This document shows positions 28,301 through 61,981 of a stretch of DNA of 64,000 bases, one piece after another (within the stretch, counting starts at the first letter, position 1; each line of letters opens with the position of its first letter). Source of the DNA: Dendrobates tinctorius (Eukaryota). The notes beneath the pieces are model-generated. The model saw only the letters and a list, made by a program, of their open reading frames with translations. It was not told the DNA's origin and searched no databases. The translations under genes and the position numbers were made by a program. The stretch covers positions 3,534,001 through 3,598,000 of the forward strand of contig NW_027361727.1 of assembly GCF_039654945.1 (NCBI RefSeq), read 5' to 3'.

Positions 28301-29110
28301 GCAACTCAGGGATAAAGCCGTCATTCCTATCGATTAGCTGCAGCCAAAACGGGTTGAGGCGCCAGAGAGGTCTATCATTCCTCCTGTTCCCGCCCCCCCC
28401 AAGCATGACTGAAACAGGCGAATGATCAGATACCGTTCGCGCCAGATATTTAACCTCTAAAAAGTTTTTCCAAGCATAAGATCATCACCCAGGGCCAGAT
28501 CGATGCGAGACAGGGAGGAGTGAGTAGAGGAGAAGCACGAGAACTGACGGACACCAGGGTTACAGCATCTCCACAAGTCGGTCAAAGCTATCTCCCGCAC
28601 GAGCACCCCAAATGGCGTAAGATTACCTCCCAGCCTCAGAGGCTCATGGCCACCCCTGTCCCAATGTGAATCCAGAAAATTATTAAAATCTCCCACCACC
28701 ATATGCGGAACCCCCGGAAAATCTCTCAGAATGGCAAGAACTTTATAGATAACTCTACTGCTATAAGGCGGAGGTATATATATAGATATCAACACCAGTG
28801 GGGTGGAAAAGATTGTACAAGATAGAAGGACAAATTGCCCCTCTGTGTCCACCACTACCCGGTGACACTTAAATTGAGTCCTGGAGTGAATCAATATACT
28901 AACCCCCCTAGAGTATTGGGAATGAGTAGAGTGAAAGCCCGCCTGTACCCATCTCTTATCCAGGATTCCCAGCGTCTCCTGTGTGAGATGCGTCTCCTGC
29001 AAACAAACAACCTCCGGCTTCTGGTCCGTTATGAAGGAGAATATGTCATGTCGTTTTACCGGCGACTTCAACCCCCTGATATTCCAACTAAGTATCTTAA
29101 AATCAGCCAT
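25344..29110 (-). pseudogene. L1 ORF2 (APE endonuclease, RT, CCHC), one frameshift near 28460
   Basis: SWNIRG, LQETH, GDFN and SRID (EN). KAFDSV, GTRQGCPLSP and YADD (RT). CPKC..H....C at the C-terminus. Confidence 0.93.
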
Positions 29111-29542
29111 TATCGTACCATAGCATATTGCCTACCATCTCCCCCCCGGCCGTACCATAGCCAATATTGAAATGTACAAGTATGCCAAAGGACATTTTTG
29201 AACCCAATCCCTCCCCCCAAAGAACACCCTCCAACAATTCCTAGGGCTGAACCAAGGGTGCAAAAAGTAAGGGTACTGTCGAACCCTTCCACCCCATTCA
29301 GCAGGTGCTTCAGTTCCTTTTCACTACCCGCATTTGACAGGATATAACCCCACAGCACTTTGCATTTTCCCTTATCCGTATTCAGACCAAGGCCCCATAA
29401 GGACCACAAATTCTTAAAAAAACAGCATATAACAGAATAATAAAAGAATAAATAAAAATATAACTTCTTAGGCAGTCCATTGCCTCAGGACCGCAGACTT
29501 CAACCGCAAGGCTCCATAATAACTGAGCAGGCCAAGATACCA

Positions 29543-30817: not shown

Positions 30818-31855
30818 TCACATGCCGCTCAGGCCACGCCCCCCAATATATCCTTTGTTGGCAATGACAGAGGTCAAACGTTTTCTGTAAGTCTTCACAA
30901 GGTTGCCACACACTGTTGTTGGTATGTTGGCCCATTCCTCCATGCAGATCTCCTCTAGAGCAGTGATGTTTTTGGCTTTTCGCTTGGCAACACGGACTTT
31001 CAACTCCCTCCAAAGGTTTTCTATAGGGTTGAGATCTGGAGACTGGCTAGGCCACTCCAGGACCTTGAAATGCTTCTTACGAAGCCACTCCTTCGTTGCC
31101 CTGGCGGTGTGCTTTGGATCATTGTCATGTTGAAAGACCCAGCCACGTTTCATCTTCAATGCCCTTGCTGATGGAAGGAGGTTTGCACTCAAAATCTCAC
31201 GATACATGGCCCCATTCATTCTTTCATGTACCCGGATCAGTCGTCCTGGCCCCTTTGCAGAGAAACAGCCCCAAAGCATGATGTTTCCACCACCATGCTT
31301 TACAGTAGGTATGGTGTTTGATGGATGCAACTCAGTATTCTTTTTCCTCCAAACACGACAAGTTGTGTTTCTACCAAACAGTTCCAGTTTGGTTTCATCA
31401 GACCATAGGACATTCTCCCAAAACTCCTCTGGATCATCCAAATGCTCTCTAGCAAACTTCAGATGGGCCCGGACATGTACAGGCTTAAGCAGTGGGACAC
31501 GTCTGGCACTGCAGGATCTGAGTCCATGGTGGCGTAGTGTGTTACTTATGGTAGGCCTTGTTACATTGGTCCCAGCTCTCTGCAGTTCATTCACTAGGTC
31601 CCCCCGCGTGGTTCTGGGATTTTTGCTCACCGTTCTTGTGATCATTCTGACCCCACGGGGTGGGATTTTGCGTGGAGCACCAGATCGAGGGAGATTATCA
31701 GTGGTCTTGTATGTCTTCCATTTTCTAATTATTGCTCCCACAGTTGATTTCTTCACTCCAAGCTGGTTGGCTATTGCAGATTCAGTCTTCCCAGCCTGGT
31801 GCAGGGCTACAATTTTGTTTCTGGTGTCCTTTGACAGCTCTTTGGTCTTCACCAT
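30818..31855 (-). CDS. Tc1 transposase (DD34E), 345 aa; last 3 native residues replaced by L1-derived sequence
   Basis: Paired HTH N-terminus, [15 protein letters not shown] and [11 protein letters not shown]. The native end ...KGYITKY* lies at 25093-25119 on the far side of the L1. Confidence 0.93.
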
Positions 31856-32715
31856 AGTGGAGTTTGGAGTCAGACTGTTTGAGGGTGTGCACAGGTGTCT
31901 TTTTATACTGATAACAAGTTTAAACAGGTGCCATTACTACAGGTAATGAGTGGAGGAAAGAGGAGACTCTTAAAGAAGAAGTTACAGGTCTGTGAGAGCC
32001 AGAAATCTTGATTGCTTGTTTCTGACCAAATACTTATTTTCCACCATAATATGCAAATAAAATTAAAAAAAAACAGACAATGTGATTTTCTGGATTTTTT
32101 TTTCTCAGTTTGTCTCCCATAGTTGAGGTCTACCTATGATGTAAATTACAGACGCCTCTCATCTTTTTAAGTGGTGGAACTTGCACTATTGCTGACTGAC
32201 TAAATACTTTTTTTCCCAACTGTACATTACATTACTGATCCTGAGTTACATCCTGTATTATACCCCAGAGCTGCACTCACTATTCTAATGGTGCAGTCAC
32301 TGTGTATATACATTATATTACTGATCCTGTACTGATCCTGAGTTCCATCAAGTATTATACTCCATAGCTGCACTTCTGCTTCACAACTGAAATCGCCCAA
32401 TTCTTCTTGCTTGCCTAGGTTTTGTGCAGAGCTCATTCTTATTATTTCAGTTCTGGGCAGTATACGGTAATCTGTACACACAAAGTGGCTGATAACAGAG
32501 AATAATAGACTGTGTATAGAAGAGCTGAAAGCAATCTGCCCATAGATAAAATGGCTGTAAACAAAGGGCAATAGATTGTTTCCACCTGTCACACTGTCCT
32601 CCTTGTCCCTCCCTGAAATGACTGATAACAGGGGGCAATAGTCTCATTCTACTGAATGGGAGGAAGGGATTAGTCTTAGGCTTGTGTGTTAGGAGTGGGT
32701 CACTGAATGACTCGG

Positions 32716-34323: not shown

Positions 34324-35498
34324 TCTAAAGCTGAATGTGTGGGTGTGTATGTATAGGATTGGCATCTGCACCGTCGCAGCTACAGCCACAAAATTTTGCA
34401 CAGCCACACGTCTGGACCCCGAGAGCGTCATAGGCTATGTTGTGAGGCGAAATTTTAACCCCGCGCGTTCCAATTCACCAAACAATTTGGCCTATCATTC
34501 TTATCATTTCTATGGTGTTATTGTCCTTCTGTAAAGCTGGAAATAACACAATTTATTACCTTGCCAACACAGACCACCCTCTGACACAGACTGCAGGGGG
34601 AGCCCAGTATCACACAGGATAGGATTAGATACACGGCTGAGCAGTCAGTATCACACAGGATAGGATTAGATACACAGCTCAGCAGTCAGTATCACACAGG
34701 ATAGGATTAAATACACGGCTCAGCAGTCAGTATCACACAGGATAGGATTAGATACACTGCTTAGCAGTCAGTATCACACAGGATAGGATTAGATACACGG
34801 CTGATCAGTCAGTAACACACAGGATAGGATTAGGTACACGGCTCAGCAGATAGTATCACACAGAATAGGATTAGATACACGGCTCAGCAGACGGTATCAC
34901 ACAGGATAGGATTAGATACACGGCTCAGCAGTCAGTATCACACAGGATAGGAATAGATACACGGCTCATCAGAAAGTATCACACAGGAGAGGATTAGGTA
35001 CATAGCTCAGCAGACATTATCACACAGGACAGGGTTAGATACACAGCTCAGAAACAGGATGTGCCAAAGGAGAGGACATTTTCATTCCAAGAATTCCACT
35101 CATTCCATCTGATTTGTTTTTTGATTTTAAATGTCTCCAGTTTCCAGTTCTATTTGCAATGTCCATTAACAATGCTCAGGGACAGTCCTTGAAAGCAGTA
35201 GGGATCGATTTGCAATCTCCATGCTTTTCTCATGGTCAACTTTACGTGGTCTGTTCAAGAGTTGGAACTGCCAAAAATATGTTCATCTTTGCACCGAAAG
35301 GAAAAACCAAAAATCTTGAATGAGTTGAAAATAAAATACTATCAATACTTGGGTAATCGTTTAGTTAATTTGTGTTGCAAATCTGTAGTGTTGAATATAT
35401 GATGTGAAATGTTTTTATGGGCAATATAATCATTATAATTTGTTATAACTAACCACAGTTGGTTACTATGCCCAGGCAACGCTGGGCTCTACAGCTAG
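34324..35498 (+). mobile_element. Non-autonomous Helitron with a 41-bp minisatellite and a PIF1-type helicase remnant
   Basis: A|TC start. 3' hairpin gcccaggcaacgctgggc plus CTAG|T. Peptide FAMSINNAQGQSL..VGIDL..PCFSHGQLYVVCSRV at 35114-35323. 41-bp units at 34605-35050. Confidence 0.88.
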
Positions 35499-36255: not shown

Positions 36256-38392
36256 TTAAAGGGAACCTGTCATCAGGTATCTCGATACGACTTTCAGGGC
36301 TTATCTACAACATTCTAAAGCCCTGACTGGTCAAGAGGCCTCATGATGGGGGCAATACGCGCCATTAGCCAAAAAAGAGTAATATGACAGTACAATGATC
36401 CAACCTCGAAATTAGAGGATTTTTACTATATTTTTTGGAAGGGACAAGCAACTGGGATCTGTGGCCCTGCAAAAAAATATAGATAAAAGTGCCAGTAGAT
36501 TACCCTGCGCCATTGTTACACAGAAGCACGTGTTACCAACCACAGAACCACCCAAGTCGGATTCTGGATCATTATTCCCGAATCTGGAGACATTTTTTGC
36601 ACCCTCCTCTCTTTCTCGCCCGTTGTCACCCACTGACCCCACAGAGCGGTTTTTATACATGAGCACCATTGTGCGTGCAGTTTTCAGCCGGCGGAGCCCA
36701 CACCTGAGCGCACGCTCCTCGTCTCAGACCTTCCACATGGCGCTGACTGATAGAACGGAGAATCACAATGGCCAATTACGAGCTTGTGTGCGATTGTTCA
36801 CGTCTTTAATTGAATTTCTCACATAATTCCAGTCGGCTGCCTTTGTTCTGACGTTGCCTGGGAGCACATTACAGCACAATGGCGCTGCAGTGATGAGCGA
36901 GCATCGAGAGTCATTAAAGCAATGCAGTGGAACGTGGTACAATGGACTGGGAGCCGTGCTGAGGGAATGGAAGAACTGCATTGAGACGTGTCAGCATTAA
37001 ATGAAAGACAGACAGCCCCGCCGCCTCGTAAAGACGCCCAACCGGCAGAAATGTAACATGCGCCGGGATAGAGGGATGGGGGAGGTGATGGCTCTGGATT
37101 GAGAATTCACTCTGCATTTACATTGTATCGATTCCAGCTTGTAAAGATGGGAAACATAGTAATCACAGTAATTATAGGGAACGCTCAGTAGTAATTAGGA
37201 TTATTTAACGACCTTCTAGCAGAGAACTCATTATAGAAGTTGGAATCATGTACGGCAGGGGACAGGGAGGGGGTCCATATATAAACTTTGCAGCATTTTT
37301 TCAACATCTGCTTAAAACTTTTTCACATTATCTGTAAATATATATATTTTAAACTTACGGTCGTGTGAATAAAAGATTATAGTTCGTTGTTGCATTAATG
37401 CTGCAAAAGTAAGCATGTTTTCACAGATAGAAATGTTAATATATTTTTATCTAACAAAATGCGAAGTGAATAAAGAGGAGAGAAATCTAAATCCCATCAA
37501 TATTTAGTGAGCGCCCTTTGCCTTCATTAATTCTTATAGATACACTTGTCACTTGCACACAGACTGTAAATGATCTCAGCAGAAAGTTGTTCCAAACATC
37601 TTGGAGACCTGACCCCAGATCTTCAGTGTATGAGGCTTGTGCAAATCCTTCTGTTTCTTCATGTGATCCCAGACACAATGGATGAGGTGAGATGATGTGA
37701 GATCAGGGCTCTGCGGGGGCCGGATCATCACTTCCCAGACTCCTTGCTCTTAGTGACATTGGCTGGATCTTTGGGGTCGTTGTCCGGCTGCAGAATAAAT
37801 TTGGAGCTAATCAGACGCCTTTCTCATGGTATTACATGATGGATAAGTATCTGCCTGTGTTTAATCCTGACCAAATTGCCAATTTCATTTGCTGAAACGC
37901 AGCCCCAAACATACAGGATTCCCCACCATGCCTTACTGTTACTGTGTACTCCCATTATTGTGCAGCCCTTTGGTGAACAAATTGCCATCTGTTACAGGCA
38001 AATAGTCTTAGTTACTCACCGGTTAACGGTATTTTTCGGAGTCCATGACAGCACCATCTGAGAGAGGGGATCCACCCTTCTTAGGAACAGGAAAAACCTA
38101 CAGATACAAAAGGGCGGCACCTCTCCCACGCATCAGTTGGATTACAGAGTATAAAAAGAGGACCTCCAAGGTTAATGCATAATTATATGTACAACAATAT
38201 CAACACTTAAATCTTTATCACCCATGGATATGTACAAAGGGAAGACGTGCACACCCAAATTAACTAAGGGAAGGGAATCTATGGGTGCTGTCATGGACTC
38301 CGAAAAATACCGTTAACCGGTGAGTAACTAAGACTTTATTCGGTCGTCCATGACAGCACCACCTGAGAGAATTACAGAGAGTAATCACTACT

Positions 38393-39823
38393 TTAGGGGG
38401 GGACTACAGCCTGCAGAACCCTGTTACCGAAGGAGAGGTCTGCAGAGGCACCCAAGTCTAGTCTATAATGACTATAAAAAGTGCTCGGAGAGGACCAAGT
38501 GGCCGCCTTACAAATCTGGTCGATGGAGACTTCCGACCTCTCGGCCCACGAGGTTGCCACGGCTCTGGTGGAATGCGCCTTCAATTTCTCCGGAGCTACT
38601 CTACCTTTTGAGGCATAAGCTAACGAGATTGCTTCTCTAATCCACCTGGCTAGTGTACTTTTGGACACCCTAAGACCTTTCCTAGGGCCTTGGTAGGAGA
38701 CAAAGAGAGCATTGTCTTTCTTCCAGGGATCGGTAGCTGCTAGATACTCCAAGAGGCATCTCCTAACATCTAAAGTGTGTAGCTTCTCCTCTTTCTCATT
38801 AGTTGGTTTAGGGAGGAAGGATGGAAGGACTATTTCCTGCGACCTATGAAAGCTGGAGGCTACTTTTGGTAAATACGCTGGGTCGGGTCTAAGTATTACC
38901 CTATCCTCCTTTACCTGAAGAAAAGGTGGGCGCCTAGACAATGCCTGAATGTCGCTTACCCTACGGGCTGACGTTATGGCTATTAGGAAAGCTATTTTGA
39001 GGGACAGGCTCCTAATAGAGGCCGACAAGATGGGTTCAAATGGCGCTTCTGTCATAGCTGTGAGGACTAGGTTCAAATCCCATGGCGTGAGTCTATTCTT
39101 TACTATTGGTCTGGATCTACTCGCTGCTTTGATAAATCTTTTGACCCAATAATTAGCCGCGATGTTGCAGCTAAAGAGGGCCCCTAAGGCGGATACCTGT
39201 ACTTTAAGGGTACTGGTGGAGAGACCCAAGTCCAGCCCTTTTTGTAAAAATTCCAAGATCTGGCCTATGGGGACGGAATCACCAGTATTTACATTTGAGC
39301 TTTCGAGGAACCTTTTCCAAATTCTGACGTAAATCTTAGTTGTCACTACTTTCCTACTTTTTAGTAGAGTGTCAATTAGGTCTGGAGAGAAGCCTTTACT
39401 TTCTAGCAGTGACCGCTCAAATTCCACGCCGTGAGATGTAGGCCAGCCACCTGAGGGTGGAAGACCGGGCCCTGGGACAGAAGGTCCGGGATGTCCGGGA
39501 GAACCCAAGGATCGTCTACCGACATGATCCTGAAGTTCGAAAACCATGCTCTTCTGGGCCAGAACGGGGCGATGACTATGACCCTTGCCCTGTCTTTCCT
39601 GATCTTCCTCAACACTAGAGGAAGTAGAGATAGGGGAGGAAAGGCGTAGGCTAGCCTGAAGTCCCATTTTATCAGAAGCGCATCTACTGCCAGAGGAGTC
39701 TCCCTGGGGTTTAGGGAGCAAAACTGTGTCGTTTTCGAGTTCTCCTTGGTGGCGAATAGATCCACCTCTGGCTGACCCCATCTCTGCACAATCTGAACGA
39801 AAATGGAGGTGTTTAAGGCCCAC
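38393..39823 (-). CDS. DIRS tyrosine recombinase ORF (open; the homologous domain starts at about 39420)
   Basis: PWDL..VL, TSARRVSDI (R), AHSTR (HxxR), ATWSS and FYSHY (Y). No stops or frameshifts. Confidence 0.9.
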   Translation of the reverse strand: MGLKHLHFRSDCAEMGSARGGSIRHQGELENDTVLLPKPQGDSSGSRCASDKMGLQASLRLSSPISTSSSVEEDQERQGKGHSHRPVLAQKSMVFELQDHVGRRSLGSPGHPGPSVPGPGLPPSGGWPTSHGVEFERSLLESKGFSPDLIDTLLKSRKVVTTKIYVRIWKRFLESSNVNTGDSVPIGQILEFLQKGLDLGLSTSTLKVQVSALGALFSCNIAANYWVKRFIKAASRSRPIVKNRLTPWDLNLVLTAMTEAPFEPILSASIRSLSLKIAFLIAITSARRVSDIQALSRRPPFLQVKEDRVILRPDPAYLPKVASSFHRSQEIVLPSFLPKPTNEKEEKLHTLDVRRCLLEYLAATDPWKKDNALFVSYQGPRKGLRVSKSTLARWIREAISLAYASKGRVAPEKLKAHSTRAVATSWAERSEVSIDQICKAATWSSPSTFYSHYRLDLGASADLSFGNRVLQAVVPP

Positions 39824-41223
39824 TCTCCTTGTTTTAACAGATTGCGGCTTAGGAAATCTGCCGCAATGTTCTCTTTCCCTCTTATGTGAAGAGCCGTGAG
39901 AGATAAAAAATGACGCTCTGCTAGCTGGAACAACTGTCCTGCCACCTTCATCAGAGTTCTGGATCGAGTTCCGCCTTAGTGGTTGATATAGGCCACGGCC
40001 ACTCGATTGTCCGATAGAACTCGTACGTGATGGCCCTGTAGATACATAAGGAGCTCTTTAGCTGCGAGTACTACCGCTGTTAATTCTTTCAAATTAGAAG
40101 ACATTTGTATCTGATCTCGTTCCCATAGGCCCTGGACCAGAATTTCTTCCATATGCGCCCCCCAACCGGAAGGACTTGCATCCGTGGTGACCACGCGGGT
40201 AATGTTATACTCCCAAGGGATCCCTCTAGACAAGTTATTTCTTTCTAGCCACCATTCCAGGGACTCTATTGTGTTTCTAGATAAGGTCAGTCGACCTTCT
40301 AAGTTACCCCCAAGAATCCTCTGATACCATAAAACTTCGCCCTGTAGAGTTCTCGTATGAACTTGGGCCCACTGGACTGCGGGAATGCAGGACGAGAGGG
40401 AACCCAACAGGGACATGGCATTCCTGAGGGACATGGAGGGGTTGTTGGAGGCGTTCAGGACCCGGCCATGCAGGTGCAGCAGCTTCTCTGGGGGCAGACG
40501 GCATTCCTGCTTTTTTGAATCTAGGGTTAGGCCTAGAAATTGTTGAATTTTTAATGGCTGCAAACGGGATTTTTTGATATTAAGTAGCCATCCCAACCGC
40601 TCTAGAGCCGCCGTTGTTTTCTGTAACTGTTCTAAACACTGCTCGGCTGAACTGCCTATTATAAGGAGGTCATCTAAATAGGGGACGACTAGAATGTTTA
40701 GCTCGCGCAGATGGGCCATCACTTCCCCTAAATGAGTCGTCCGGTTTACGGACAAAGAACAGGGGGGAATAGAAGCCTTTCCCCCTCTCTTCCTCTGGAA
40801 CTCTCGTCAGGACTTTTTTGTCCAGTAGCTCGAGGACCTCGGTCTCCAGGGCAGCTTGTTCTAGCGGGGAAGATTTGAGTGGAGTTACATTGAAACGATC
40901 TTGGGGAACGCAGGCGAACTCTAGGTGCAGTCCTGTAGCTATCACCCCCAGTATCCAGCTGCTATTCGAGATTCTGGCCCAGGCCGGGTAGAAGGCAGAT
41001 AATCTTCCTCCTACCGGAGCCACTAGTCATTGGGGCGGCTTCTTATTATCCCGTGAAGGACCTTCTTGGCGCCCCCCTCCTCCATACATGAAGCCCGTAC
41101 CTCTGGTTTTTTTGTTGTCCCATCTGTTCTGATCTCTGGCCTGTCTCCTGCGGGAATACCCTTTCCTAGAAAAGGGACGTCTCCAGGATGTATTCGGCAG
41201 ACTCGGAAATTTCTTTTTCTCAT
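39403..41223 (-). pseudogene. DIRS copy B ORF2: RT-RNaseH-Dam-like methyltransferase domain
   Basis: VGGRL, FYSPLF, PYLDD, TDASPSGWGA, N..AD.LSR, DLFA and YAFPP. RT core deletion at about 40730, stop at 39976-39978, 1-nt indel at about 41025. Confidence 0.9.
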
Positions 41224-42582
41224 CCCCGACCTTCTCTAACAGTTCGTCTAGCACGGGGCCGAACAAGTATTCACCCTCACAGGGGATAGAACAGAGACGG
41301 GACCTGGCTTGGATATCTCCCGGCCAGCATTTTAACCAGAGGGCTCTTCGGGCCGAATTAGACAAACTTGCAGACCTAGCCGCCATTCTTACTGAGTCCG
41401 CCGAGGCATCTGCCAGAAAGGCAGCAGCATTCTGGATAATTGGTAGAGACTTACGGATGGAGGCTCGCGAGGTTCCATCTTTTAGCTGAGAGTCCAATTG
41501 ATCCAGCCAGACCATCATGGATCTGGCTGCGCACGTGGCTGCTATTGCTGGCCTTAGGGCGCCTGCTGACATCTCCCATGTGCCCTTTAAAAAGGAATCT
41601 GCCTTTTTATCTAGGGGGTCTTTAAGGGAGGCCATATCGTCGAAGGGTATAGATGACTTTTTTGAGGCTTTAGCTACCGCTGCATCCAGCTTGGGGGCCT
41701 TATCCCATCGACTTACTATTGGGTCCTCAAAGGGGTATCTACGTTTGAAAGCGGGCGGCATAGAACCCCTTTTTTCCGTTTTTTTCCCACTCCCTGTCAA
41801 TCAGGCTCTGGACTTTTTCGTTTAGTGGAAAAGTCTTTTGTTTTCTGGGGTCTAGACCCCCGAACATAATGTCCTGAGCAGACAGTTCTGTCTTTTTTTC
41901 TTCTACCCCCATGGTTGACCTTATGGCTTTAATTAATTTATCCATTTGGTCCAAGGGAAAGCAGAACCGGCTGGAATCCTCTTCGGAAGAAGAAGAGGAG
42001 GCCGAGGACTCTGAGGAGATATCTTCCTTCCTAGGGCCGACTGAAGACTCTGAGCCTGAAACACTAGCTCGTCTTCTTTTAGAAGAACCTTCTTTTGATA
42101 GGGCTTTTATTTCAGTCCTGATTAATTGCCTCAGGTCTGTAGCGAAGCTTGGTGCTTCTTCCGCTACCTGTATAAATAGGAAAGAGTGTAAGAGTCTGAT
42201 ACTCCACTCACGTTCTACCCCTCATCTCCGTCCCTACCGTCTGTCTCACTCAAGACTGACACAATCTCTTGGGGTGGCCATCTGGTAAGGGGCAACTACA
42301 GAGGGCACATTCCTTGTGCTTCTGCTTCCCTGTGGCCTTCTTCCCCTGAGAATCAAACACATAAGGGGACACTGCATCAGGGTACATTCTCGCAGATCTC
42401 TTACCCTTGCAGATGAGGACAGGTACCGGATCATGGGGGGCTGCGGGAGGATCCTTTGACCTAGAGGAACTGCTGTGGCTCCGTCCACTTGAACGTCCCT
42501 CCTTCCTCTTAGGTTGGTCACTGGGGCGCTTTGCCACGGGCTGCACCTCTTGTGGGTCCATGGGGGCTTCTGTTGTGTCCAT
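41027..42582 (-). pseudogene. DIRS copy B ORF1 (gag-like, C4 zinc finger), with two putative introns
   Basis: Exons 42582-42427, 42345-42238 and 42167-41027. TGA in place of the last Cys codon at 42250-42252. Frameshift at about 41780. Confidence 0.8.
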
Positions 42583-44999
42583 CGCTGGGCCTCCAGAAGC
42601 ACCTCAGCAGCGATGCCTTCTGTCTTAAGAAGGCTCCCCCTCCGGATTAGCAGGACTCTGTCCGGTGTTCGGGCCCCCCATTGAACCGCTCCCCGCGATC
42701 CTCCCCCTCCCCTTCAGGTGCCCGGCCCCCTCAGGTGGCGGGCGCGCATCGGCGCGCGTTCACCACAACCGGAAGTCGCCGGCATCCGACTTCCGGTTTC
42801 GGCGCTAGGCCCCGCCCCCTTCCCCGCGCGGCAAGCGGCTAGAACTGCGCCGCCGCTCCCTCTGTGGGACACCGCCGGCGGCGCCCGCCCGAACGGACCG
42901 CACCTGAGATCCCCTCTCTCAGCTGGTGCTGTCATGGACGACCGAATAAATTTCACATTTTACTCATTGGCCCAGAGCACCTGCTGCTACTTTTGTGCCT
43001 CCCAGATTTCTAGGTTTTCATGCATAGTCAAGTCGCTTGGCCTTGTTGGCATGTTGCAGGTCTACTTTTCGGCCATAATTCTTCTATGAAAACCACCGCT
43101 GGCCAAATTTACCGAACAGTAGATGGGTTTAGCCGTGTCCCACTGGTTGCTGCCATTAATGAGCTGATGGCACTGCTGGGCATCTTCCGATTTTGAAAAA
43201 GAATTAAGTATGATGCGTCTTTTGTCTGCTGCAAGTTTCCTTAGATAACCACGGCATCTACAACGGTGCCCATTTCTTGGTTCATTTTCAAAAGAGCTTC
43301 TGCCAAGCTTTTGAAAGCTCTGTCTGCTTTGAAATGTCTGCCTGGGAGAGACCTTGCTGATGAAGTATAACTAACCTGTGTCTTCTAGCTGCGCTCTGTC
43401 TTGATATGGTGTATAACATAAAACATGGAAATGTCTTCCACAATCTCACCTTTGTAACAGTTTAAGTGTTCCTCACCCAGTTTTAAGCCTCTTACACAGC
43501 TGTTTCTGTTATAGTTAATGTCTGTTTATATGAAAATGAAGATGATCACCTGTTTGGTTACTCATCCACCTTACCACTATCCTACAAAATCCCTGACTGT
43601 GTGCAAGTGTACCTAGAAGAATTGATGCAGTTTTGAAGGCAAATGGTAATCACACCAATATGGATCTGATTTCAATTTCTCTTTTGTTAGTCACTTAGTT
43701 TGGCAATTGCTTACAAAAAACTATTATAAGGGAACCAGTCATGTCCACTAAAACGTTAGGGATGACCTGCAGCTTAACAGCGTTATAACGCTGCCTGGCT
43801 GCAGTACAGAATGTGTGCCTACTGGGAGAAAATGGACTTATTTCAACCAGGAAGCCGCCAGCTTTCAGTCATAGGGACGTGGACATGAGGACTACAGTCA
43901 TCGCTCACTATATGGTGAACAGTGGTTGTAAGCATGCCTCGGTAGTTTGAGTGACAGCTCGCATCTGTGCCGTCAATGCTATGAGCGACGACTGTGAAAG
44001 CCTGTGGCTCCCAGGAGGAATGCAGTTCATTTTCTCCCGGTAGCCGCTCTTTCAGTCCAACAGCAAGACAGCATTGTTAATTTGCAGATTAATTCTATAC
44101 TTGCAGGCTTATAACATTTTGGTGACTAGCAATCTCCTATGAAGCCCAGTGAGCAACTCCAGCTCTGAGCCTTCTCCATATGCCGTACCCAATGTATGAG
44201 GAAAAGATTAGATTGTGGGGCAGTTTGGAATTCAAGGGCATACGTGCTAAAAACTTTTATCCTCTATTCATGGGAGTGATGTAAACACCCAAGCAAAGCA
44301 GAGGTCAGAAACTATATATAGATCACCTCTACATGGAACTGTGACCTACTTTATTTATAATGATGGATTCTTAGATGGGATGGAACCTAGACAAACTATC
44401 AGTTTCTCAATGGCTAGGTGATCACAGATCTGTAGGTGGGTCCCACCGCTGGAAAATCTACTGTTAAGTCACAATGGGGTCTGAGGTTCCTCACTCTCCT
44501 CTGGGTCTCCGATATCTGCAAAGTAGCGGCCATTCATATCCTCCTGATCACAAGACTGTTCTGCATCTCAGTGGGAACCACACAATCTAAGATATTCAAT
44601 CTTTGAGAAGTTAACTCTTTAAAGGGGTCTTCATGTCTTGTACATTTAGGGCATACACACAGAATATTCAATAAATGTGAAGTAAATGAGGGTCCCATAA
44701 CCCTTTAAGTGACCAGTTCTTGCACCATGTTAACATTGAGAATGAGAAATTCTAGACTCAATGAAAGATAAGGGAATCCTCAAACTTTTGTGCTGTTGGC
44801 AAACCAATGTCCTAATAACCAGTTGTAAACAAGAAATCTGATGAGCCATGTGTACGCTCAAGGGTGTGAAATTTGGCAAGGACCAAAGAGTTGGTTAAAC
44901 TCAACAGGTGTAACTTATAAATCATCATTCCACTTCATCCTCATCCATCTTAAATGGGGTGGGTGCGGGATTCATGAAGAAGGGGCATGCCCAACCCAC

Positions 45000-48894: not shown

Positions 48895-49361
48895 TAATAG
48901 CTGCTCCCCACACAAAACCTCTCGCTCAAGTTTTATCACTTTCCATCATGTTTACTGCAAAACAGACTTCACATGTCGCCCATCCTGCAGACCGGCTACA
49001 TTTATAGGGACCTGAAACATTTCAGTATCCAATTTCAAGATAAACAGTCGGTGTGAACTGTGCACCATTCATTCTACGGCATCAAGGCCACAGCATAAGG
49101 CGCTGTCTCACTGCAGAAATATCAACAGCTCCAGGCAATCTGTTCATGGCACAAGAAAAAAAAATCCTATTTCCACGAGGATAATTTCATATTGCCCATT
49201 AAAACTTTGCAATAAAATTCAGCAATAGAATAATTTCATATTTCACCTTTCTATGCAGCAAAGATGAAGCTGTCTCAGCACCTAGAGTAGGGGACGGGCA
49301 ATGAGAAAGATACTGTGTATAACAGCTGCAGCATATGTAAAAGCCAGGGAGGCAAGAAAGA

Positions 49362-50770
49362 GCATCTTGTATTACACTGCAGAGCTGCACTCACTATTCT
49401 GCTGGTGCAGTCACTGTGTACATTCATTACATTACTGATCCTGAGTTACATCCTGTATTATACTCCAGAGCTGCACTCACTATTCTGCTGGTGCAGTCAC
49501 TGTGTACATACATTACATAACTGATCCCGAGTTACATCCTGTATTATACTCCAGAGCTGCACTCACTATTCTGCTGGTGCAGTCACTGTGTACATACATT
49601 ACTGATCCTGAGTTACATCCTGTATTATACTCCAGAGTTGCACTCACTATTCTGCTGGTGCAGTCACTGTGTACATACATTACATTACTGATCCTGAGTT
49701 ACCTCCTGTATTATACCCCAGAGCTGCACTCACTATTCTGCTGGCGGAGTTACTGTGTACATACATTACATTACTGATCCTGAGTTACATCCTGTATTAT
49801 ACCCCAGAGCCGCACTCACTATTCTGCTGCTGCAGTCACTGTGTACATACATTACATTACTGATCCTGAGTTACATCCTGTATTATACCCCAGAGCTGCA
49901 CTCACTATTCTGCTGCTGCAGTCATTGCGTACATACATTACTGATCCTGAGGTACATCCTGTATTATATCCAGAGCTGCACTCACTATTCTGTTGGTGCA
50001 GTCACTGTGTACATACATTACTGATCCTGAGTTACATCCTGTATTATACTCCAGAGCTGCACTCACTATTCTGCTTCTGCAGTCACTGTGTACATGCATT
50101 GCATTACTGATCCTGTACTGATCCTGAGTTACATCCTGTATTATATCCAGAGCTGCACTCACTATTCTGCTGGTGGAGTCACTGTGTACATTCATTACAT
50201 TACTGATCCTGAGTTACACCCTGTATTATACTCCAGAGCTGCACTCACTATTCTGCTGGTGCAGTCACTGTGTACATACATTACATTACTGATCCTGAGT
50301 TACATCCTGTATTTTACTCCAGAGCTGCACTCACTATTCTGCTGGTGGAGTCACTGTGTACATACATTACATTACTGATCCTGAGTTACATCCTGTATTA
50401 TACTCCAGAGCTGCACTCACTGTGTACATACATTACAGATCCTGAGATACATCCTGTATTATACTCCAGAGCTGCACTCACTATTCTGCTGGTGCAGTCA
50501 CTGTGTACATACATTACATTACTGATCCTGAGTTACATCCTGTATTATACCCCAGAGCTGCACTCACTCTTCTGCTGGTGCAGTCACTGTGTACATACAT
50601 TACATTACTGATCCTGTACTGATCCTGAGTTACAGCCTGTATTATACTCCAGAGCTGCACTCACTATTCTGCTGGTGCAGTCACTGTGTACATACATTAC
50701 ATTACTGATCCTGTACTGATCCTGAGTTACAGCCTGTGTTATCTTTTACAGCTGCACTCACTATTTTGCA
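49362..50770 (+). repeat. 86-bp satellite array
   Basis: About 16 tandem units. Confidence 0.94.
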
Positions 50771-53393: not shown

Positions 53394-54568
53394 TAAATGA
53401 ACGATTCTAGTAACGGAATACTTCTATACGTATGCTGTATGAAGGGATAATAAAAAGGAAAATAAGTCTGAAATGTTTGACCAGAGGCTACGCAAGGAGA
53501 GAGCTTGAAAATACAGAAGAACCGAAAACACCAAGGTTACTTACCGGTAGCCGTTTTTTCCGGAGCCCATGACGGCACACATGAGAGAGGGGATCCACCC
53601 AGTCAGGACAGGAACCCTACTAAAGATAAAAGGGCGGTACCTCTCCTTCGCTTCAGTTCGTTTACAGAGCATGAGAGGCCCCCCGGTTTAGTACACATGG
53701 TAAAACTATCACCACATTATATCTAACTAAAAAAAACACCCAAACTATAGTGCACACCAAAGGAGTGAAAAGGGGGGGGGGGGAATATACAGGTGCCATC
53801 ATGGGCTCCGGAAAAACCGGCTACCGGTGAGTAACCTTGGTGTTTTAACGTCTCCCGTGACGGCACACATGAGAGACTTTTGTAGAATAAGACACCTTAG
53901 GGAGGGACCACCGCTTGCAGCACCCTTCTACCAAAGGTTAGGTTAGTAGAGGAAGACAGATCAATTCAGTAGTGCTTAAAAAAGGTCGAAGGTGAGGACC
54001 AAGTAGCGGCTTTACAAACTTGTTCAATTGATACCTCAGCCTTCTCTGCCTAGGAGGTAGCCACGGCTCTGGTGGAGTGAGCCTTGATGCCTTCTGGAAC
54101 CAGAGCGCCACTTGCGGAGTAGGATAACATAATGGCCTCCCTGATCCATCTGGCAATGGTACTCTTAGCTACCCCGTGCCCTTTTCTACTACCCTGAAAG
54201 GCTACAAAAAGGGACTGATCTTTCCTCCACTGACTAGTTACTGACATATATTGTACTATGGCTAGTCTTACATCTAATGTATGGAACTTTTGCTCCCCAG
54301 GGTTTCTAGGATTGTTACAGAACGATGGCAAGGAGATCTCCTGAGTCCTATGAAACTTTTAGACTACCTTGGGGAGATAGGCCGGGTCTGGTCTTAGAAC
54401 CACTCGGTCATCCAAGATCTGTGTATATGGAGGACATATAGACAGAGCTTGAAGGTCGCTGACTCTTCGGGCTGATGTTAAGGCTACCAGTAAGACAGTT
54501 TTAAGTGTAAGTAGCTTTGGTGACAGTTCTAGTAGTGGTTCAAAGGGGTCTTTGGTTAAGGCCTCTAA

Positions 54569-54964
54569 AGGTACTGTCACACTTAGCGATGTACCAGCGA
54601 TCCCGACCAGCGATATGACGCGGTCAGGATCGCTGGTACATCGCTAAGTGGTCGCTAGTGAGCTGCCACACAGGCAGATCTCACTAGCAACATCGCTGGG
54701 GACGGGGGTCGCTACTTACCTGTCACACCAGGCGATCCTGCGTCCTCCCGCCCGGCTCCACGCGTCGCTCGTCGTCACAGCAGGAAGCACCGCAGGAAGC
54801 TGACGACGAGAAACAGTCCAGGACGTTCTCGCGCGAGCAGCGATAACCAGGGGGGGAGCCGGTCGTAGGTAAGTATCAGACACAGCGATATCGCAAGCAA
54901 TATCGCTATAACGTCACAAGTTATAGCTATATTGCTAGCGATATCGCTTAGTGTGACATGCCCT
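54569..54964. mobile_element. Harbinger/PIF-like MITE interrupting the YR gene of DIRS copy C
   Basis: TAA|aggtactgtcacacttagcgat...atcgcttagtgtgacatgccct|TTA. It splits PWDLSLV|LEALTKDP. Confidence 0.88.
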
Positions 54965-57900
54965 TTAGACTAGGCTGAGGTCCCAGGGTGGTATCTTTGG
55001 GATAATGACCGGCCTTGACCTGCCACAGGACTTTATGAATCGGGACACCCACCTATTGGCTGCTAAGTTGCAGTTATATAGAGCTCCCAAAGCTGAGACT
55101 TGAACTTTGAATGTGTTAGTGGCTAACCCCAGTTGTAGCCCCGACTGTAAGAACTCTAGGATAGGTCCCACTGGCACTACATCCACCAAGGGTTCCCCCA
55201 GGAAGTCTAGGAACTTTTTCCACGTTCTACCGTAGATTTGGGATGTTATAGGTTTCCTACTTTTCAACAGGGTAGAGACTAACCCTGGAGAGAATCCCTG
55301 GCGACTCAGTAGAGCCCTCTCAAATTCCAGGCTGCTAGATGGAAGCCCTTCACCTGAGAGTGGACCACTGGTCCCTGGGAAAGCAGGTCTGGAATCTCCG
55401 GTAGTATCCATGGATCTGTCACTGACATGAGTCTCAGAAGGGAGAACCAAGGCCTCCTCGGCCAAAACGGAACTATAAGAATTATTCTCGCTCGATCCTC
55501 CCCGATTTTCCTGACCACTACTGGGATCATTGTTATCGGGGGAAATGCATAGGCCAGGATGAACTTCCAGGGTATTTGTAGGGCATCTACTGCGAAGGGG
55601 TTTTCCCTTGGGTTTAGTGAGCAGAACTTCCTGACCTTCCGGTTGTGTGCGGTAGCGAACAGGTCTATTTCTGGTTTGCCCCAGGCCTGAACTATTTGTT
55701 GGAAGACTTGGGGGTTTAGGGACCATTCCCCTTGTCTCAGATGCCTGCGACTCAGGAAGTCTGCCTGTATATTTTCTGCCCCCTTTATGTGCAGTGCTGT
55801 GATGGATAACAGATGTTGTTCTGCTAGCTGGAAGAGTAGATCTGATATTTGCATGAGGCCCCGAGATCTCGTTCCCCCCTGGTGATTGATGTAGGCTACT
55901 ACTGCTTGATTGTCCGTCATGACCCGGGTGTGGCGGCCCTGAAGTAAGGGAAGGAAATGTCTCACGGCTTTCTCCACTTCCCATAGTTTTTACATTTGAA
56001 CCGTGATCCTTTTCTAGCGAGGACCAGGTCCCCTGTATTGTGTGGGATCTCAGGTGTGCTCCCCATCCTGTGGCACTCGCGTCTGTTGTAATGATGTCCT
56101 CGACTGGTTTTTGCCACAGGACACCGGCTGTTAGATTCTTTTCTACCGTCCACCAGAGCAGGGAATCTCTTACAGCCACTGAGAGACATAGTTTGCCTTC
56201 TAAATGCCCTTTTAATTGTTTCTGTGCTGACAGAACTTCCCACTGTAGTTGCCTTAAGTGGTACTGCGCCCATGCTACTGCGGGTATGCATGATGTCAGT
56301 AAGCCTAAAAGGGACATTGCGTTCCTCAGTGTCATATTTGGTCTTTGTATTGCGAGCTAGGCCTCTTATCTTGGTCACTTTGCTCTCTGGTAGGAGGCAG
56401 CGTTGTTGCTCGGAGTCCAATATCAACCCTAGGAAGGATTGCTCTTTTACTGGGGTTATCCTTGACTTGGGGATGTTTACTATCCATCCTAGTCCTACTA
56501 GAATTGCTATCACTTCCTTCACTTGATGTGTGCAGTGAGACTCCGACCTCACTATTATCAGAAAGTCGTCTAGCTATGGGACGATCACTATGTCCCTGGA
56601 ACGCAGAAAAGACATTACTTCGGCCATCACTTTGGTGAATACTCTGGGGGCTGTAGACAGGCCAAATGGAAGGGCTGCGTTCTGGTAGTGGTTCACCTGC
56701 CCCTGGACATGGAGCGCTACTCAAATATTTTTGATACTCCCGATGAATATATGATAGTAGGCATCTTTTAAGTCTATCACTGCCATGAGGCAATGCTGGA
56801 ACAGGATCTTTGTGGCCGTATTGATGGACTCCATTTTGAAGGAGCAATTGTCTACCCACTGATTGAGTCTCCTCAGGTTGACAATGGTTCTCCAAGAGCC
56901 GTTTTTGTATTAAGAAGAGGGGGGAGTAGAACCCCCTTCCTTCTTCTTGCACTGGGACTTCCTGTAGGACTTGTTTTTTCACTAGTCCCAAGACTTCCGT
57001 CTCCAGGGCCAGCTGTTGCTCTTGGGCTTTCCTTCTGGGTGTCATTATGAAGGTGCGCCTGGGCGGACGGATGAATTTTATTTTTAAGCCGTCCTTGATT
57101 ATATTTAGGACCCATGTACTGGGGGAGATATTTGCCCAGGCAGAAAGGAAGAGAGAAAGCCTTCCCCCTACCTCCGACCCAATGTTATTGGGGAGATTTT
57201 TTGGAGGAAGTGGATGGCCTTTTAAACATATAGCCTGATCCTCTACTTTCTTTAAAGTCCCAGCTTTTTCTATCTCCCGGGGGACGACCCCTGTTAAATC
57301 TCCTCCTCCGAAAGGGCTGCTTTTTAGGTTCTCCCGGAAATCGGGGAAAGCCTTTCTTCCTATCCCCGCATGTTCCAAAATCTCTTCTAGTTTTTTCCCG
57401 AAGAGGAATTGGCCATCACATGGAGTGGAACATAACCTATGCTTCGATGGTAAATCTCCGGGACACCCTTTAAGCCACAGGGCTCGTCTTGCCGCGTTTG
57501 ACAGGCTTGCTGCTCTAGCTGTCAACCTTGCAGAGTCTGCAGAGGAATCCGCTAGGAAAGCCGCTGCTCCGTGCACCAGTGTCAAATTAGACAAAATTTC
57601 GTCCCTAGGAACTCTATCCTTGATCTGGTCCTCTATTTGTTGTAGCCAGACCATGAGGGCACGAGCGGTACAGGTATCGCTATCGCTGGTTTCAATCCAC
57701 CTGCTGAAGCTTCCCAGATATGCTTTAGGAAACCGTCTGCTTTTTTGTCAAGCGGGTCTTTCAACACGCCAGAGTCCTCTAATGGTAGGGATACCTTTTT
57801 GAGGATCTGGCTACGGCCCCATCAATTTTTGGGACTTTTTCCCAGGCTTCTGAATCCTTCTGCTCAAAAGGGTACCTCCTCTTTGATGTGGAAGGTAAGC

Positions 57901-58506
57901 CCCCTGACCACTCCGTTTTTTTCCATTCCCTGTCAATTAGCGCTTTTATTTTATCATGTACAGGGAAGGTACGTTTTCGTTTTTCCTCCAGTCCTCCAAA
58001 CATTACATCCTCTAATGATTTGGGAGTTTTTTCCTCTTTAAGGCCCATTGTAGCCCTAATCGCTCTGACCAGTTTTTCCACATCCTCTGTTGGGAAACAT
58101 GGACGGCCGCCTATATCGCTGTCCGAGGAGGATTCTGAGGACTGAGTAGAGGAAGAGGAGGTGGAGGGGGACAAGGATCTATCCCGCCCCTTCTGCCTTG
58201 GCGAGGCCTCTGAATCGGAGCTTCTTCTACGATTTCTTTTATCTTTCTTTTTAAGGGCTGCCCTTAGGGAACATTTCACCTCCTGTTGAATTAACTGTTT
58301 AAGGCTAGTCACCAAATCAGGGGTCTCCTCTTGTGTAGATTTATTTATACAGTCAGCGCAGAGGTCTTTCTGCCACTGATCTGCCAGCGGGTGTTTACAT
58401 AGGGCGCAGTCTCTATTTTTGGTTTTGCTGCTTGCCTTCCTCGACCCCTAGTGATCAAACAGAGAAAATGGAACCCCGTTACCATAAGGATGACATTCAT
58501 GTAGAT

Positions 58507-60334
58507 CAGTGGTCCCCAACCTTTTTTGCACCAGGGACCGGTTTCAAGCAAGACCATTCTTCCATGGCCCGGCAGGGCGGGGATGGAGGTGTAGCAGGGG
58601 CGGGGCTTTGGTCATAAGGGGGCGGGGCTATGGACACGGTTGTAGTGTAGCAGTGCATACTTATAATTAACTAACATTTATAATGTGACTCAACTCACCA
58701 TAGGTTTTGAATGAGTGCGCCATCACCCCCTTCTCCCCATCATTGCCTTCACCCCATCACTCCCTTCTCCCCATCATTGCCTTCACCCCATCACTCCCTT
58801 CTCCCCATCATTGCCTTCACCCCATCACTGCTGTCTCTCCATCATTGCCTTCACCCCATCACTCCCTTCTCCCCATCATTGCCTTCACCCCATCACTCCC
58901 TTCTCACCTTCATTGCCTTCACCCCATCACTGCTGTCTCTCCATCATTGCCTTCACCCCATCACTCCCTTCTCTCCATCACTGCCTTCACCCCATCACTC
59001 CCTTCTCCCCATCATTGCCTTCACCCCATCACTCCCTTCTCCCCATCATTGCCTTCACCCCATCACTCCCTTCTCCCCATCATTGCCTTCACCCCATCAC
59101 TGCTGTCACTCCATCATTGCCTTCACCCCATCACTGCTGTCTCTCCATCATTGCCTTCACCCCATCACTGCTGTCTCTCCATCATTGCCTTCACCCCATC
59201 ACTGCTGTCTCTCCATCATTGCCTTCACCCCATCACTGCTGTCTCTCCATCATTGCCTTCACCCCATCACTGCTGTCTCTCCATCATTGTCTTCACCCCA
59301 TCACTGCCGTCTCTCCATAATTGCCTTCACCCCATCACTGCCGTCTCTCCATCATTGCCTTCACCCCATCACTGCTGTCTCTCCATCATTGTCTTCACCC
59401 CATCACTGCCGTCTCTCCATCATTGCCTTCACCCCATCACTCCCTTCTCCCCATCATTGCCTTCACCCCATCACTCCCTTCTCCCCATCATTGCCTTCAC
59501 CCCATCACTGCTGTCTCTCCATCATTGCCTTCACCCCATCACTGCAGTCTCACCATCATTGCCTTCACCCCATCACTCCCTTCACCCCATCACTCCCTTC
59601 TCCCCATCATTGCCTTCACCCCATCACTGCTGTCTCTCCATCATTGCCTTCACCCCATCACTGCTGTCTCCCCATCATTGCCTTCACCCCATCATTCCCT
59701 TCTCCCCATCATTGCCTTCACCCCATCACTCCCTTCTCCCCATCATTGCCTTCACCCCATCACTGCTGTCTCTCCATCATTGCCTTCACCCCATCACTGC
59801 TGTCTCCCCATCATTGCCTTCACCCCATCACTGCTGTCTCCCCATCATTACCTTCACCCCATCACTCCCTTCTCCCCATCATTGCCTTCACCCCATCACT
59901 CCCGTCTCCCCATCATTGCCTTCACCCCATCACTGCTGTCTCTCCATCATTGCCTTCACCCCATCACTCCCTTCTCCCCATCATTGCCTTCACCCCATCA
60001 CTGCTCTCTCCATCATTGCCTTCACCCCATCACTCCCTTCTCCCCATCATTGCCTTCACCCCATCACTCCCTTCTCCCCATCATTGCCTTCACCCCATCA
60101 CTCCCTTCTCCCCATCATTGCCTTCACCCCATCACTGCTGTCACTCCATCACTCCCTTCTCCCCATCATTGCCTTCACCCCATCACTGCTGTCTCTCCAT
60201 CATTGCCTTCACCCATCACCCCCATCATGGCCTTCTCCCATCACCCCAGGCATCATGGCCTTCTCTCCCCATCACGGTCTTCTCCTCATGTCCCCATCTC
60301 CTCCAGGGCCAGGCTCCACCTACACAAACACAGA

Positions 60335-60365
<31 letters not shown>

Positions 60366-60762
60366 GTACACACAGACAGACATACATACACACACATTAT
60401 ACATACACAGACACCACCTCTCTCCTCTCACCTGTCCGCAGCATCGCCCGCGCTTCCTCGCTCTGACACAGCAGCGGCCGCGCTCCTCTCTGTGTCAGTC
60501 AGAGACAGGAAGCGCGGGCGGCGGGCAGGAAGCTGGACGGGTCCTTGCAGCTCCGCTCCTGCTATTCCCTCTTGCAGGCAGCGGAGCTGCTTGGATCGCT
60601 CCCTGGCCGCCACTACACATGAGGGCAGTCTAAGAACTGCTGCGCGCCGCCCCAGCACCCGCTACGCCACTGACCGCCCCTGGCTCCCCTTGTGTCCGCG
60701 GACCGGCAAGGGCACTGCAGCGGCCCGGTGCTGGGCCGCGGACCGGCGGTTGGGGACCCCTG
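58507..60762. mobile_element. hAT (Charlie-like) non-autonomous element carrying a 34-bp minisatellite
   Basis: 8-bp TSD atgtagat at 58499-58506 and 60763-60770. TIRs cagtggtccccaacc...ggttggggacccctg. Confidence 0.92.
58720..60270. repeat. 34-bp minisatellite (ccccatcattgccttca ccccatcactcccttct; 2x17)
   Basis: Tandem units in two interspersed variants. It is the source of the spurious long ORFs. Confidence 0.95.
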
Positions 60763-61981
60763 ATGTAGATCACTCACCACCGCTGTCAATCAGGGGTACC
60801 GATCTCAGAGGCTCCTCAGATGCACTCGTGACATTTCTCCTGGACGTCTCAGAGTCATGCCGATTGCGTTTATGACTGCCGCTCCCACCACTCGAGCAAC
60901 TGCTCCTGGTATGTTGGCGCCACGGCCTGGCATCTGGAGAGAGGTCTTGCCACTGACACTGCTGTCGCTGCTCGTCTTGCCCCACTTCCATCATGAAGCC
61001 TTGGGCATGAGTGCGTCTTCTGTGGTCATCCCCTTTTTGTAAGGGGGATCCACTGCACTCTCCACCTCCTCCGGTTACCCCACAGCAGACCCCCCCCCCC
61101 CCCGCCATGCCGCCGGGATATTTCGCCGGCCGGAGTTATTTGCTATGGGCGCCGCCATCTTGGGTTGCTGGCGCCGCCATCTTGGGTTGCCGGCGCCGCC
61201 TCCCGACGTCACGCAGGCACGCTCCCAGCGTGCCCTGCGTGTGACGTCAGGGGAGCGCGACCCGGAAGTGGCCGTTCCCTGACGCTGGCTGCTCCTGGAT
61301 GCGGCAGAGGGGGAGAGGGCGGCACGGCAGAGCCCCAGGACGTGCTGCTTCTGCGCCCGCTCGGATGTTGAGCCCCCGGGGGACCCGCGGACGGAGCTTC
61401 CCTCCCCCGACGCACGGCGCCCAGGACCCTGCCTGTTCTTCCACGCCGGCACGAGAGAGGGGCAGGTACGTGTTCCTTCAATACACGGGTCCCTGTCAGG
61501 ACAGGAAACCCAACTGAAGCGAGGGAGAGGTACCGCCCTTTTATCTTCAGTAGGGTTCCTGTCCTGACTGGGCGGATCCCCTCTCTCATGTGTGCCGTCA
61601 TGGGAGACGGGAAAACACAAAGTATATCAGCAAGTTGTTGGTTTGCATTAACCATAGTTATCACACGAGACCACAAGACGGGAACCGAGGAAAACAGAGC
61701 GCAATCTAATTAAATAAGGAACTTTCTTAATTTCCTGACCTAATATTTTTTTCTGCCCTGAATTGAAGAACTGATTAATCTAAGGAAAAGTTCACAGTAG
61801 GTGTTTTTTTTTAGGCAAATTTTCAGTATCAGCAAAGTCTATGAGATTTCAGAAATCTCATGCACACGGCTTGGTTTTTATTGCCATCAGGATTTTGTCC
61901 TTTGTATGGTTTTTAGCACAACAGAGCATGTCACTTCTTTCATGCTTTTTTCAGCGTTTTTCAAACATTCAAATGAATGTG

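Follow-up and report, generated by a model that had tools for sequence, protein, structure and literature searches.

Evidence for spliced gag introns in DIRS1-type retrotransposons of the frog Dendrobates tinctorius

Intron-less copies point to a spliced gag

We analysed a 64,000-nucleotide stretch of the Dendrobates tinctorius genome (NCBI RefSeq assembly GCF_039654945.1, contig NW_027361727.1, positions 3,534,001 to 3,598,000; hereafter the window), whose minus strand carries two DIRS1-type retrotransposons, copies B and C. Both belong to a known superfamily; what is newly evidenced here, from genomic sequence, is that a member of it splices its gag gene. Two introns were recognised in gag of copy B (Table 1). 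The second is almost certainly a real spliceosomal intron, and the first is very probably real in the clade, judging by copies elsewhere in the genome that lack precisely these segments. Genomic retro-copies show that a vertebrate retrotransposon splices gag, yet most copies keep their gag introns, which points to unspliced RNA being chosen as the template. An earlier, sequence-only reading of the window had proposed that unspliced RNA is the genome and that spliced subgenomic RNAs make both gag and a fusion of exon 1 with the tyrosine recombinase (YR). Its observations are partly confirmed and its interpretation is partly supported; gag splicing and a mostly unspliced genome RNA hold up, splicing to YR is plausible (a second donor is used in 7 of 11 models, see below), and the particular route it gave to YR does not stand.

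The window copies were compared with 80 further copies of B, 20 further copies of C, and copies of families A, D, E1-E3, F, F3 and G, with A and D to G found via neighbouring DNA or named gag proteins. Copies of E to G were ranked by how well they fit spliced gag models, which favours intron-less copies, and no frequency can be derived from them; 60 of the B copies were picked by the motif between the two donors described below and hence cannot lack intron 1. Splice sites were scored with a rough matrix. The flanks of the fetched loci, when searched, held no additional well-preserved families.

Precise intron loss is the trace expected of splicing followed by reverse transcription. The 163 copy-to-reference comparisons contained 43 deletions of at least 40 nt, 13 of which are exact removals of a gag intron. 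GT-AG ends were flagged in 12 of these 13 (the thirteenth, in L100, was identified separately) and in none of the remaining 30 deletions. An intron-loss marker assay described in the accessible part of PMC7192593 rests on the same logic.

Intron 2 of copy B was predicted from the reading frames. It has GT-AG ends and a pyrimidine tract, its removal restores the frame, and it is precisely absent from three of the 80 B copies (L190, L194 and L208). These three belong to separate sub-lineages, each nearest to a different intron-bearing copy (0.7-0.9% apart), and differ from one another at 137-224 of ~5370 positions. The intron is without counterpart in families C to G, and it repeats the layout of intron 1, with an inner strong donor of its own. 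It was absent from the sequence-only reading, as were the likely recoding signals for reverse transcriptase discussed below.

Intron 1 is exactly missing, from the weak phase-0 donor to the zinc-finger acceptor, in ten copies of five sister subfamilies (L096 and L100 in E1; L097, L098, L140 and L141 in E2; L116 and L117 in F; L125 in G1; L126 in G2), all of which are otherwise collinear wherever element sequence is present. At the family G junctions, microhomology amounts to no more than one base. The same intron-1 position is kept in all families examined, and gag models of four named frog species (Ranitomeya, Phyllobates, Engystomops) place the junction of exon 1 and the zinc finger at the phase-0 position. 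Only this donor is in frame with the zinc-finger exon, as had been claimed, and all ten splice sites previously listed for copies B and C exist on the minus strand with the letters and phases given, the two donors lying 22 nt apart in both copies. Two of the intron-less copies, L097 and L098 (G000:C171 and C185), are 99.7% alike, have different flanks and share a 9-nt deletion; they may form a small sub-lineage without the intron that has moved at least twice.

Copy C had been credited with a single intron ending at the acceptor at 58447. The acceptor is present, and the 2.35-kb gap before it consists of an 88-nt intron and a private 2256-nt insertion (58507-60762). The latter has terminal inverted repeats, an 8-bp target duplication and a long array of 17-bp period, and is missing from all 20 other C copies examined (one aligns in part only); we take it to be a non-autonomous, hAT-like element inserted in intron 1.

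Translation of 21 family B copies shows intron 1 to be in frame and free of stops in all 21, so its removal is not required, and the obligatory gag splice in B is probably that of intron 2. Some further results weigh against splicing of intron 1 in B, or say little about the introns. An exact-pattern search found no B copy without intron 1, which is also retained by the three copies lacking intron 2, and no precise loss of intron 1 was seen among B or C copies. Site conservation across B copies is 93-100%, which carries no meaning in so young a family. No splice junction was seen in RNA: contigs from four runs (two guessed to be RNA, two of unknown type), placed on copy L049, show no joint at the predicted sites and span intron 2, but the runs may be DNA and so provide no evidence either way. 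The introns fold no better than shuffled sequences (z -1.0 to 0.3).

A strong second donor accompanies intron 1

A strong donor lies 3' of the working donor in every family from B to G, at a distance of 17-29 nt and in phase 1 or 2. The spacing is 22 nt in 81/81 B copies and in the 18 parsed of 21 C copies, 19 in D, 23-29 in E, 22 (12 copies) or 23 (3 copies) in F, and 17, 19 or 20 in G. An in-frame stop separates the donors in five G copies (5/7 parsed copies of G1 and G3) and in one F copy. A 22-nt, phase-1 arrangement is thus not the conserved layout that had been suggested; the programme varies by family, and this spacing is not its fixed core. The old family A has a single strong in-frame donor (5 copies inspected).

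From the second donor to the gag acceptor there are only 54-66 nt in B, C and E and ~60 nt in F, which is short for a vertebrate intron. Being too close to this acceptor, the second donor would serve it poorly, and so it may reach distant acceptors or hold the RNA unspliced. A motif 3' of it is common to families B to F and missing in G.

Automated models from related frogs suggest some use of this donor. In one Ranitomeya family, 7 of 11 models connect it with the acceptor of pol codon 146 and continue through codons 228 and 414 into the YR frame, while model P0343 reads through it unspliced. Two family G copies of this genome (L130 and L132) have a phase-consistent chain of donors and acceptors in pol, at codons -50, -21, 146, 228, 265 and 414, which fits the multi-exon Ranitomeya models; the codon-146 acceptor was not found in G2, and the absence of stops from the G mini-exons reaches no better than P ~0.08 against chance. 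As a separate candidate, we considered acceptors at the gag stop that match the second-donor phase. They match in 3 of ~7 families, which is the chance level, and this candidate was therefore rejected. The gag stop region of copy B also contains a possible phase-1 acceptor (exon from 41022). In full-length B copies (L033 and L044), the 5' untranslated region contains a strong donor with a run of pyrimidines after it; this region is deleted in copy B.

The recombinase frame opens far upstream of the proposed acceptors

The fusion of exon 1 to YR had been placed at acceptors 39471 and 39450. Above these, the YR frame is stop-free for 195 codons or more (195-604 across families). Across the 185 codons above the proposed acceptor, it contains no stop in 18 of the 21 copies with unbroken pol and one stop in each of the other three, compared with 4-11 stops expected and at most 4 stop-free shuffles per 1000; the third frame of the unbroken-pol copies has 49-78 stops. 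The frame opens at pol codon 409 in B and 396 in G, and in C and E, where it shares the frame of gag, it runs open along the whole of pol. Hence the entry must be far upstream of 39471/39450.

Both acceptors are also Gln codons of the overlapping pol frame, a caveat raised at the outset. The first of these codons is CAA in family D and subfamily E3, which accordingly lack a phase-1 AG there; the residue implies CAG in 30 of 39 parsable relatives among 120 (a rough parse). None of the 43 deletions shows a join to 39471/39450, nor does any of the protein models inspected.

A better candidate in copy B is an acceptor within RNase H, at 40035; the last YR-frame stop starts 25 nt before it, at 40060. 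Starting from pol codon 409, the chance of the B frame staying open is 1.0 to 40035, 0.13 to a slippery site (39904-39910), 0.03 to the ATG at 39781, and 0/3000 to 39471. Family G has an acceptor at the equivalent place, which 11 of 14 models of a related family use, from a donor in the pol frame. Three phase-1 donors are available for YR in copy B (42404, 41274 and 41100). The donor at 41274 reads GTGAAT in 67/71 B copies and GTRAGT in 16/16 G copies; its equivalent is weak in D, present in 2/3 F3 copies, and absent in E, F and all C copies but one. In D, E and F, there is an acceptor at pol codon 10 whose phase equals that of the second donor (1, 2 and 1, respectively), and which C and F3 lack. 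In tree-frog models, joins that lead from the end of gag into the YR frame recur across many loci, as in 13 of 15 listed members (of 24) of one cluster and 4 of 5 members of another. Taken together, splicing to YR is likely, and in B would use the acceptor at 40035. We had also considered the RNase H acceptor as one shared with copy C, and rejected this; the AG of the window's C copy is private and most other C copies are without it.

It had also been claimed that YR has no conserved ATG. In-frame ATGs do occur, at 39781 in the window and at pol codons 10-21 in ~30 long YR models of relatives; these ATGs derive from Trp codons of pol. No excess over chance can be demonstrated, the ATG excess at pol Trp12 being inseparable from chance.

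In families C and E (e.g. L056 and L107), the recombinase frame is stop-free across the entire 627-codon pol, such that 1.9 kb is double-coded. A fish-like protein cluster (P0264) has gag and YR in a single frame.

Reverse transcriptase appears to be reached in different ways

The pol frame is in frame with gag in B and at +1 to gag in C to G. In C to F, 54 of 59 copies have a UUU-CG motif ~40 codons before the gag stop, which was found in 0/77 B, 0/15 G and 0/4 A copies; its presence in C to F matches which families need a +1 shift. The motif lies in the zero frame of gag in 47 of 54 cases as parsed, and the +1 frame is open into pol. The +1 frameshift site of influenza PA-X, according to the accessible part of PMC8310308, is UCC UUU CGU. 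The frog motif resembles it in that UUU-CGN lies in the gag frame with the +1 frame open, and one E3 copy has the exact nonamer, although the frog site is only a prediction and is missing in B and G.

UGA-CUAG is a readthrough context. It occurs at the gag stop in 72 of 74 B copies. In G, the gag donor equivalent to 41274 matches the top-scoring acceptor, which leads into pol, and the predicted join is seen in P0159 and in the P0148 cluster (4 of 14 members). Reverse transcriptase is thus likely to be expressed by readthrough at UGA-CUAG in B, by +1 frameshifting at UUU-CGN in C to F, and by a short gag-to-pol splice in G, all of these being predictions.

A possible expression programme and its alternatives

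Since introns are cleanly missing from a few copies, replication is likely from unspliced RNA and proteins from spliced RNA. We lean towards a model in which new copies are usually made from unspliced RNA, Gag from spliced RNA, and the recombinase from a further spliced RNA, which enters the YR frame at 40035 rather than at 39471/39450. In copy B, splicing of intron 2 would be obligatory for gag, intron 1 could be read through, and the YR donor would be 42404 or one of the gag-internal donors at 41274 and 41100. Only tentatively do we propose a fuller, retrovirus-like programme, in which the ~80-nt gag intron, its weak working donor, the strong second donor and the shared motif choose between genome RNA and mRNA, the second or a gag-internal donor leads to the YR frame via acceptors in pol, and the mode of reverse transcriptase expression switches by family. 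The junctions and recoding sites named here are directly testable.

Several points weigh against the part of this model that concerns YR. The acceptor at 40035, too, coincides with a Gln codon of pol, and most C copies, E2 and F lack it. Among 80 B copies, no deletion ends at 40035, and no model of a B-type element has a direct join from a donor to it. The RNase H acceptor and the gag-internal donors are post hoc candidates, recognised by inspection, and the splice scores come from the rough matrix. Genome-wide searches with exact patterns found no retro-copies of second-donor splicing in B (compared with 175 exact carriers) or in E2, where a control pattern found 4 copies without intron 1; such patterns miss acceptors with A as third base and mismatched copies. 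The second-donor models read exon 1 in another frame, which is closed in the G1 copy of this genome (L130). Finally, the RefSeq models are automated, their read support was not seen, and a large number yield broken products; the models may thus reflect cryptic splicing.

It is worth asking whether YR could be reached by recoding, with the gag introns real and the second donor serving as a decoy that keeps genome RNA unspliced. The routes would be a -1 shift at 39910 in B, a -1 shift after the last YR-frame stop in G, and, in C to F, readthrough of the gag UGA into an in-frame YR frame of 968 codons. Slippery heptamers do occur at pol codon 459 in B and, directly after the last stop, at codon 397 in G; the RNA 3' of the B site is more stably folded than shuffled versions (z -2.8; 7 stretches were folded in all), while no fold was found 3' of the G site (z 0.0 and 0.4). 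That the YR frame of C and E is in frame after the gag stop and stop-free over all of pol suits such readthrough, as does a 216-member cluster with gag and YR in one 1503-aa frame, and the second donor varies in phase and may be preceded by a stop. However, gene models of relatives show splices into the YR frame, and the phase match of the codon-10 acceptor with the second donor in D, E and F also speaks against this explanation, which we consider unlikely.

The same phase match is an argument for another explanation, that the second donor is a dedicated YR donor in most families, with its acceptors at pol codon 10 (D, E and F) and 40035 (B). The two phases shift together between D (1), F (1) and E (2), the codon-10 acceptor is the top-scoring internal acceptor in E1 and E2, and a YR-frame ATG is mostly lacking from the first ~110 codons in E and F, unlike in C (codon 18). 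Yet this concerns three lineages only. C and F3 have no such acceptor, and in G a phase-1 acceptor faces donors that are in phase 2 or preceded by stops. Moreover, donor-less, intron-less copies recur (L097 and L098), though help in trans is possible, and exact patterns found no retro-copy of such an RNA. We regard this explanation as improbable.

The sequence-only reading of the YR route, with a conserved 22-nt, phase-1 donor fusing exon 1 to YR at 39471/39450, is largely refuted and now seems very improbable; in B and C the sites are present and their phases agree, but neither spacing nor phase is conserved, the acceptor is missing in D and E3, the frame is open far upstream, and no model or copy has the join. 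It is just as hard to believe that the introns are incidental, being cryptic sites occasionally spliced in passively transcribed copies with no role in expression: intron 1 of B can be read through and many gene models give broken products, but the unspliced zinc finger of C to G has no start codon or frame, gag of B is cut by the stop in intron 2, and one intron position is kept across all families examined.

Relation to known elements

The elements share their organisation with described vertebrate DIRS1-like elements of the Xenopus type, namely inverted terminal repeats, an internal complementary region, a LAP2alpha gag, reverse transcriptase, RNase H and methyltransferase domains, and a YR frame overlapping pol (accessible parts of PMC3266345 and PMC9210276). 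Those elements are described there with three overlapping, unspliced open reading frames (ORFs), and neither 'intron' nor 'splic' occurs in the accessible main text of the two papers. The frog elements differ in that gag appears to be spliced and in that signals for frameshifting, readthrough and splicing vary by family. The accessible parts of PMC4495291, PMC9341512, PMC12477816 and PMC13465315 contain nothing on DIRS1 splicing, and that of PMC7192593 describes DIRS replication through single-stranded or circular cDNA. We found no report of DIRS1 gag splicing, nor any explanation of how the three overlapping and partly start-less ORFs of DIRS1 elements are expressed; the search did not extend to subscription papers, Repbase or supplements, and Repbase entries and the supplements of PMC9210276 may annotate such introns.

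Other retroelements use both spliced and unspliced RNA, for example for retroviral env, foamy virus pol and Drosophila copia gag, as well as in plant Ogre and in Penelope elements. As in those, introns would persist in the frog elements because unspliced RNA is the usual template, with occasional intron-less copies. The differences are that the frog elements belong to another order, that in them an intron of ~80 nt, with a second strong donor inside it, lies near the start of gag, and that gag itself needs the splice. Introns have reportedly also been noted in fungal YR elements, by Goodwin and Poulter in 2004 or in related work. A parallel may also be drawn with the negative regulator of splicing of Rous sarcoma virus, in that a strong but non-productive donor could favour unspliced genome RNA, although the gene models suggest that the second donor sees some use.

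Such splicing has a practical consequence, since ORF-based annotation of these abundant amphibian elements would miss the true N-terminus of Gag.

Copies B and C and their surroundings

Copy B belongs to a young family, with ~92-99% alignment identity to it in 20 copies, and its inter-donor 21-mer has 175 exact matches across the 6.4-Gb genome. The closest named protein relatives come from poison frogs. In copy B, a private deletion has removed 318 nt of the 5' region, pol has lost 272 nt, and a stop interrupts the zinc finger; sister copies carry an unbroken pol of 627 codons. The inverted terminal repeats are reduced to a 32-36-nt remnant, compared with ~100 nt in sister copies, and in the internal complementary region 38284-38335 pairs with the right end and 38335-38370 with the left end. 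The gag contains the LAP2alpha domain (PF11560, E 5e-12). In the deleted pol, RT_RNaseH is over its cut-off, with RVT_1 (E 5e-5) and Dam (E 1e-3) under theirs. The YR ORF, which overlaps pol, matches PF00589 (E 1e-4) under the cut-off, and its relatives are labelled Tyr recombinase.

Table 1. Features of copies B and C, by position in the window. Coding features of copy B are given in the order of transcription.
Feature	Positions	Strand	Basis
Copy B, DIRS1-type retrotransposon of a young family	38004..42950	-	
Left inverted terminal repeat, remnant	42908..42950	-	repeat pairing
gag exon 1, coding part (ATG 42582, 52 codons)	42427..42582	-	
Intron 1, 81 nt, weak phase-0 donor	42346..42426	-	
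Strong second donor (42404, phase 1, 59 nt before the acceptor) and shared motif 3' of it	42385..42404	-	
C4 zinc-finger exon	42238..42345	-	
Intron 2, 70 nt, phase 0, contains a stop; inner strong donor 42211	42168..42237	-	
gag exon 3 (LAP2alpha domain); two more phase-1 donors, 41274 and 41100	41027..42167	-	
gag stop in UGA-CUAG context, in frame with pol; predicted readthrough site	41023..41029	-	
pol frame: reverse transcriptase, RNase H, adenine-methyltransferase-like domain	39403..41026	-	
YR frame, open over 554 codons that overlap RNase H and methyltransferase; the final ~340 codons hold the recombinase domain	38393..40057	-	
Predicted YR acceptor within RNase H (exon from 40035, YR phase 1)	40035..40053	-	
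Slippery heptamer, rival -1 frameshift entry to the YR frame	39904..39910	-	
First in-frame YR ATG (462-aa database model P0001)	39779..39781	-	
Two YR acceptors of the sequence-only reading, Gln codons of pol, probably not the entry point	39450..39473	-	
Right terminal repeat, right extension and internal complementary region (38284-38370)	38004..38370	-	repeat pairing
Copy C, older DIRS1 family; donors 60799 and 60777, acceptor 58447	53526..61616	-	
Copy C, site of a predicted +1 frameshift (UUU-CGN within Pro-Phe-Arg codons), ~40 codons ahead of the gag stop 57187	57308..57316	-	

Besides the insertion in its intron 1, copy C has a second private insertion at about 54569-54966. This interrupts the recombinase and is one of a group of related, short palindromic insertions, another of which interrupts copy A (~2190-2400), with further members near 19466 and 48526. 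Copy A, at 1-2200 on the minus strand, is a decayed third DIRS copy, from family A, disrupted by an insertion that lies past the zinc-finger region.

Elsewhere in the window, the minus strand at 25344-29131 and 30818-31933 carries a LINE (long interspersed nuclear element) with endonuclease and reverse transcriptase, interrupted upstream by a Tc1-type transposase ORF of 371 codons. Many minisatellite arrays with units of 35-37, 41, 69 and 81-86 bp are found at 3850-24900, 34500-35100 and 49360-50750, and a 717-nt inverted repeat lies at 12687-14308.

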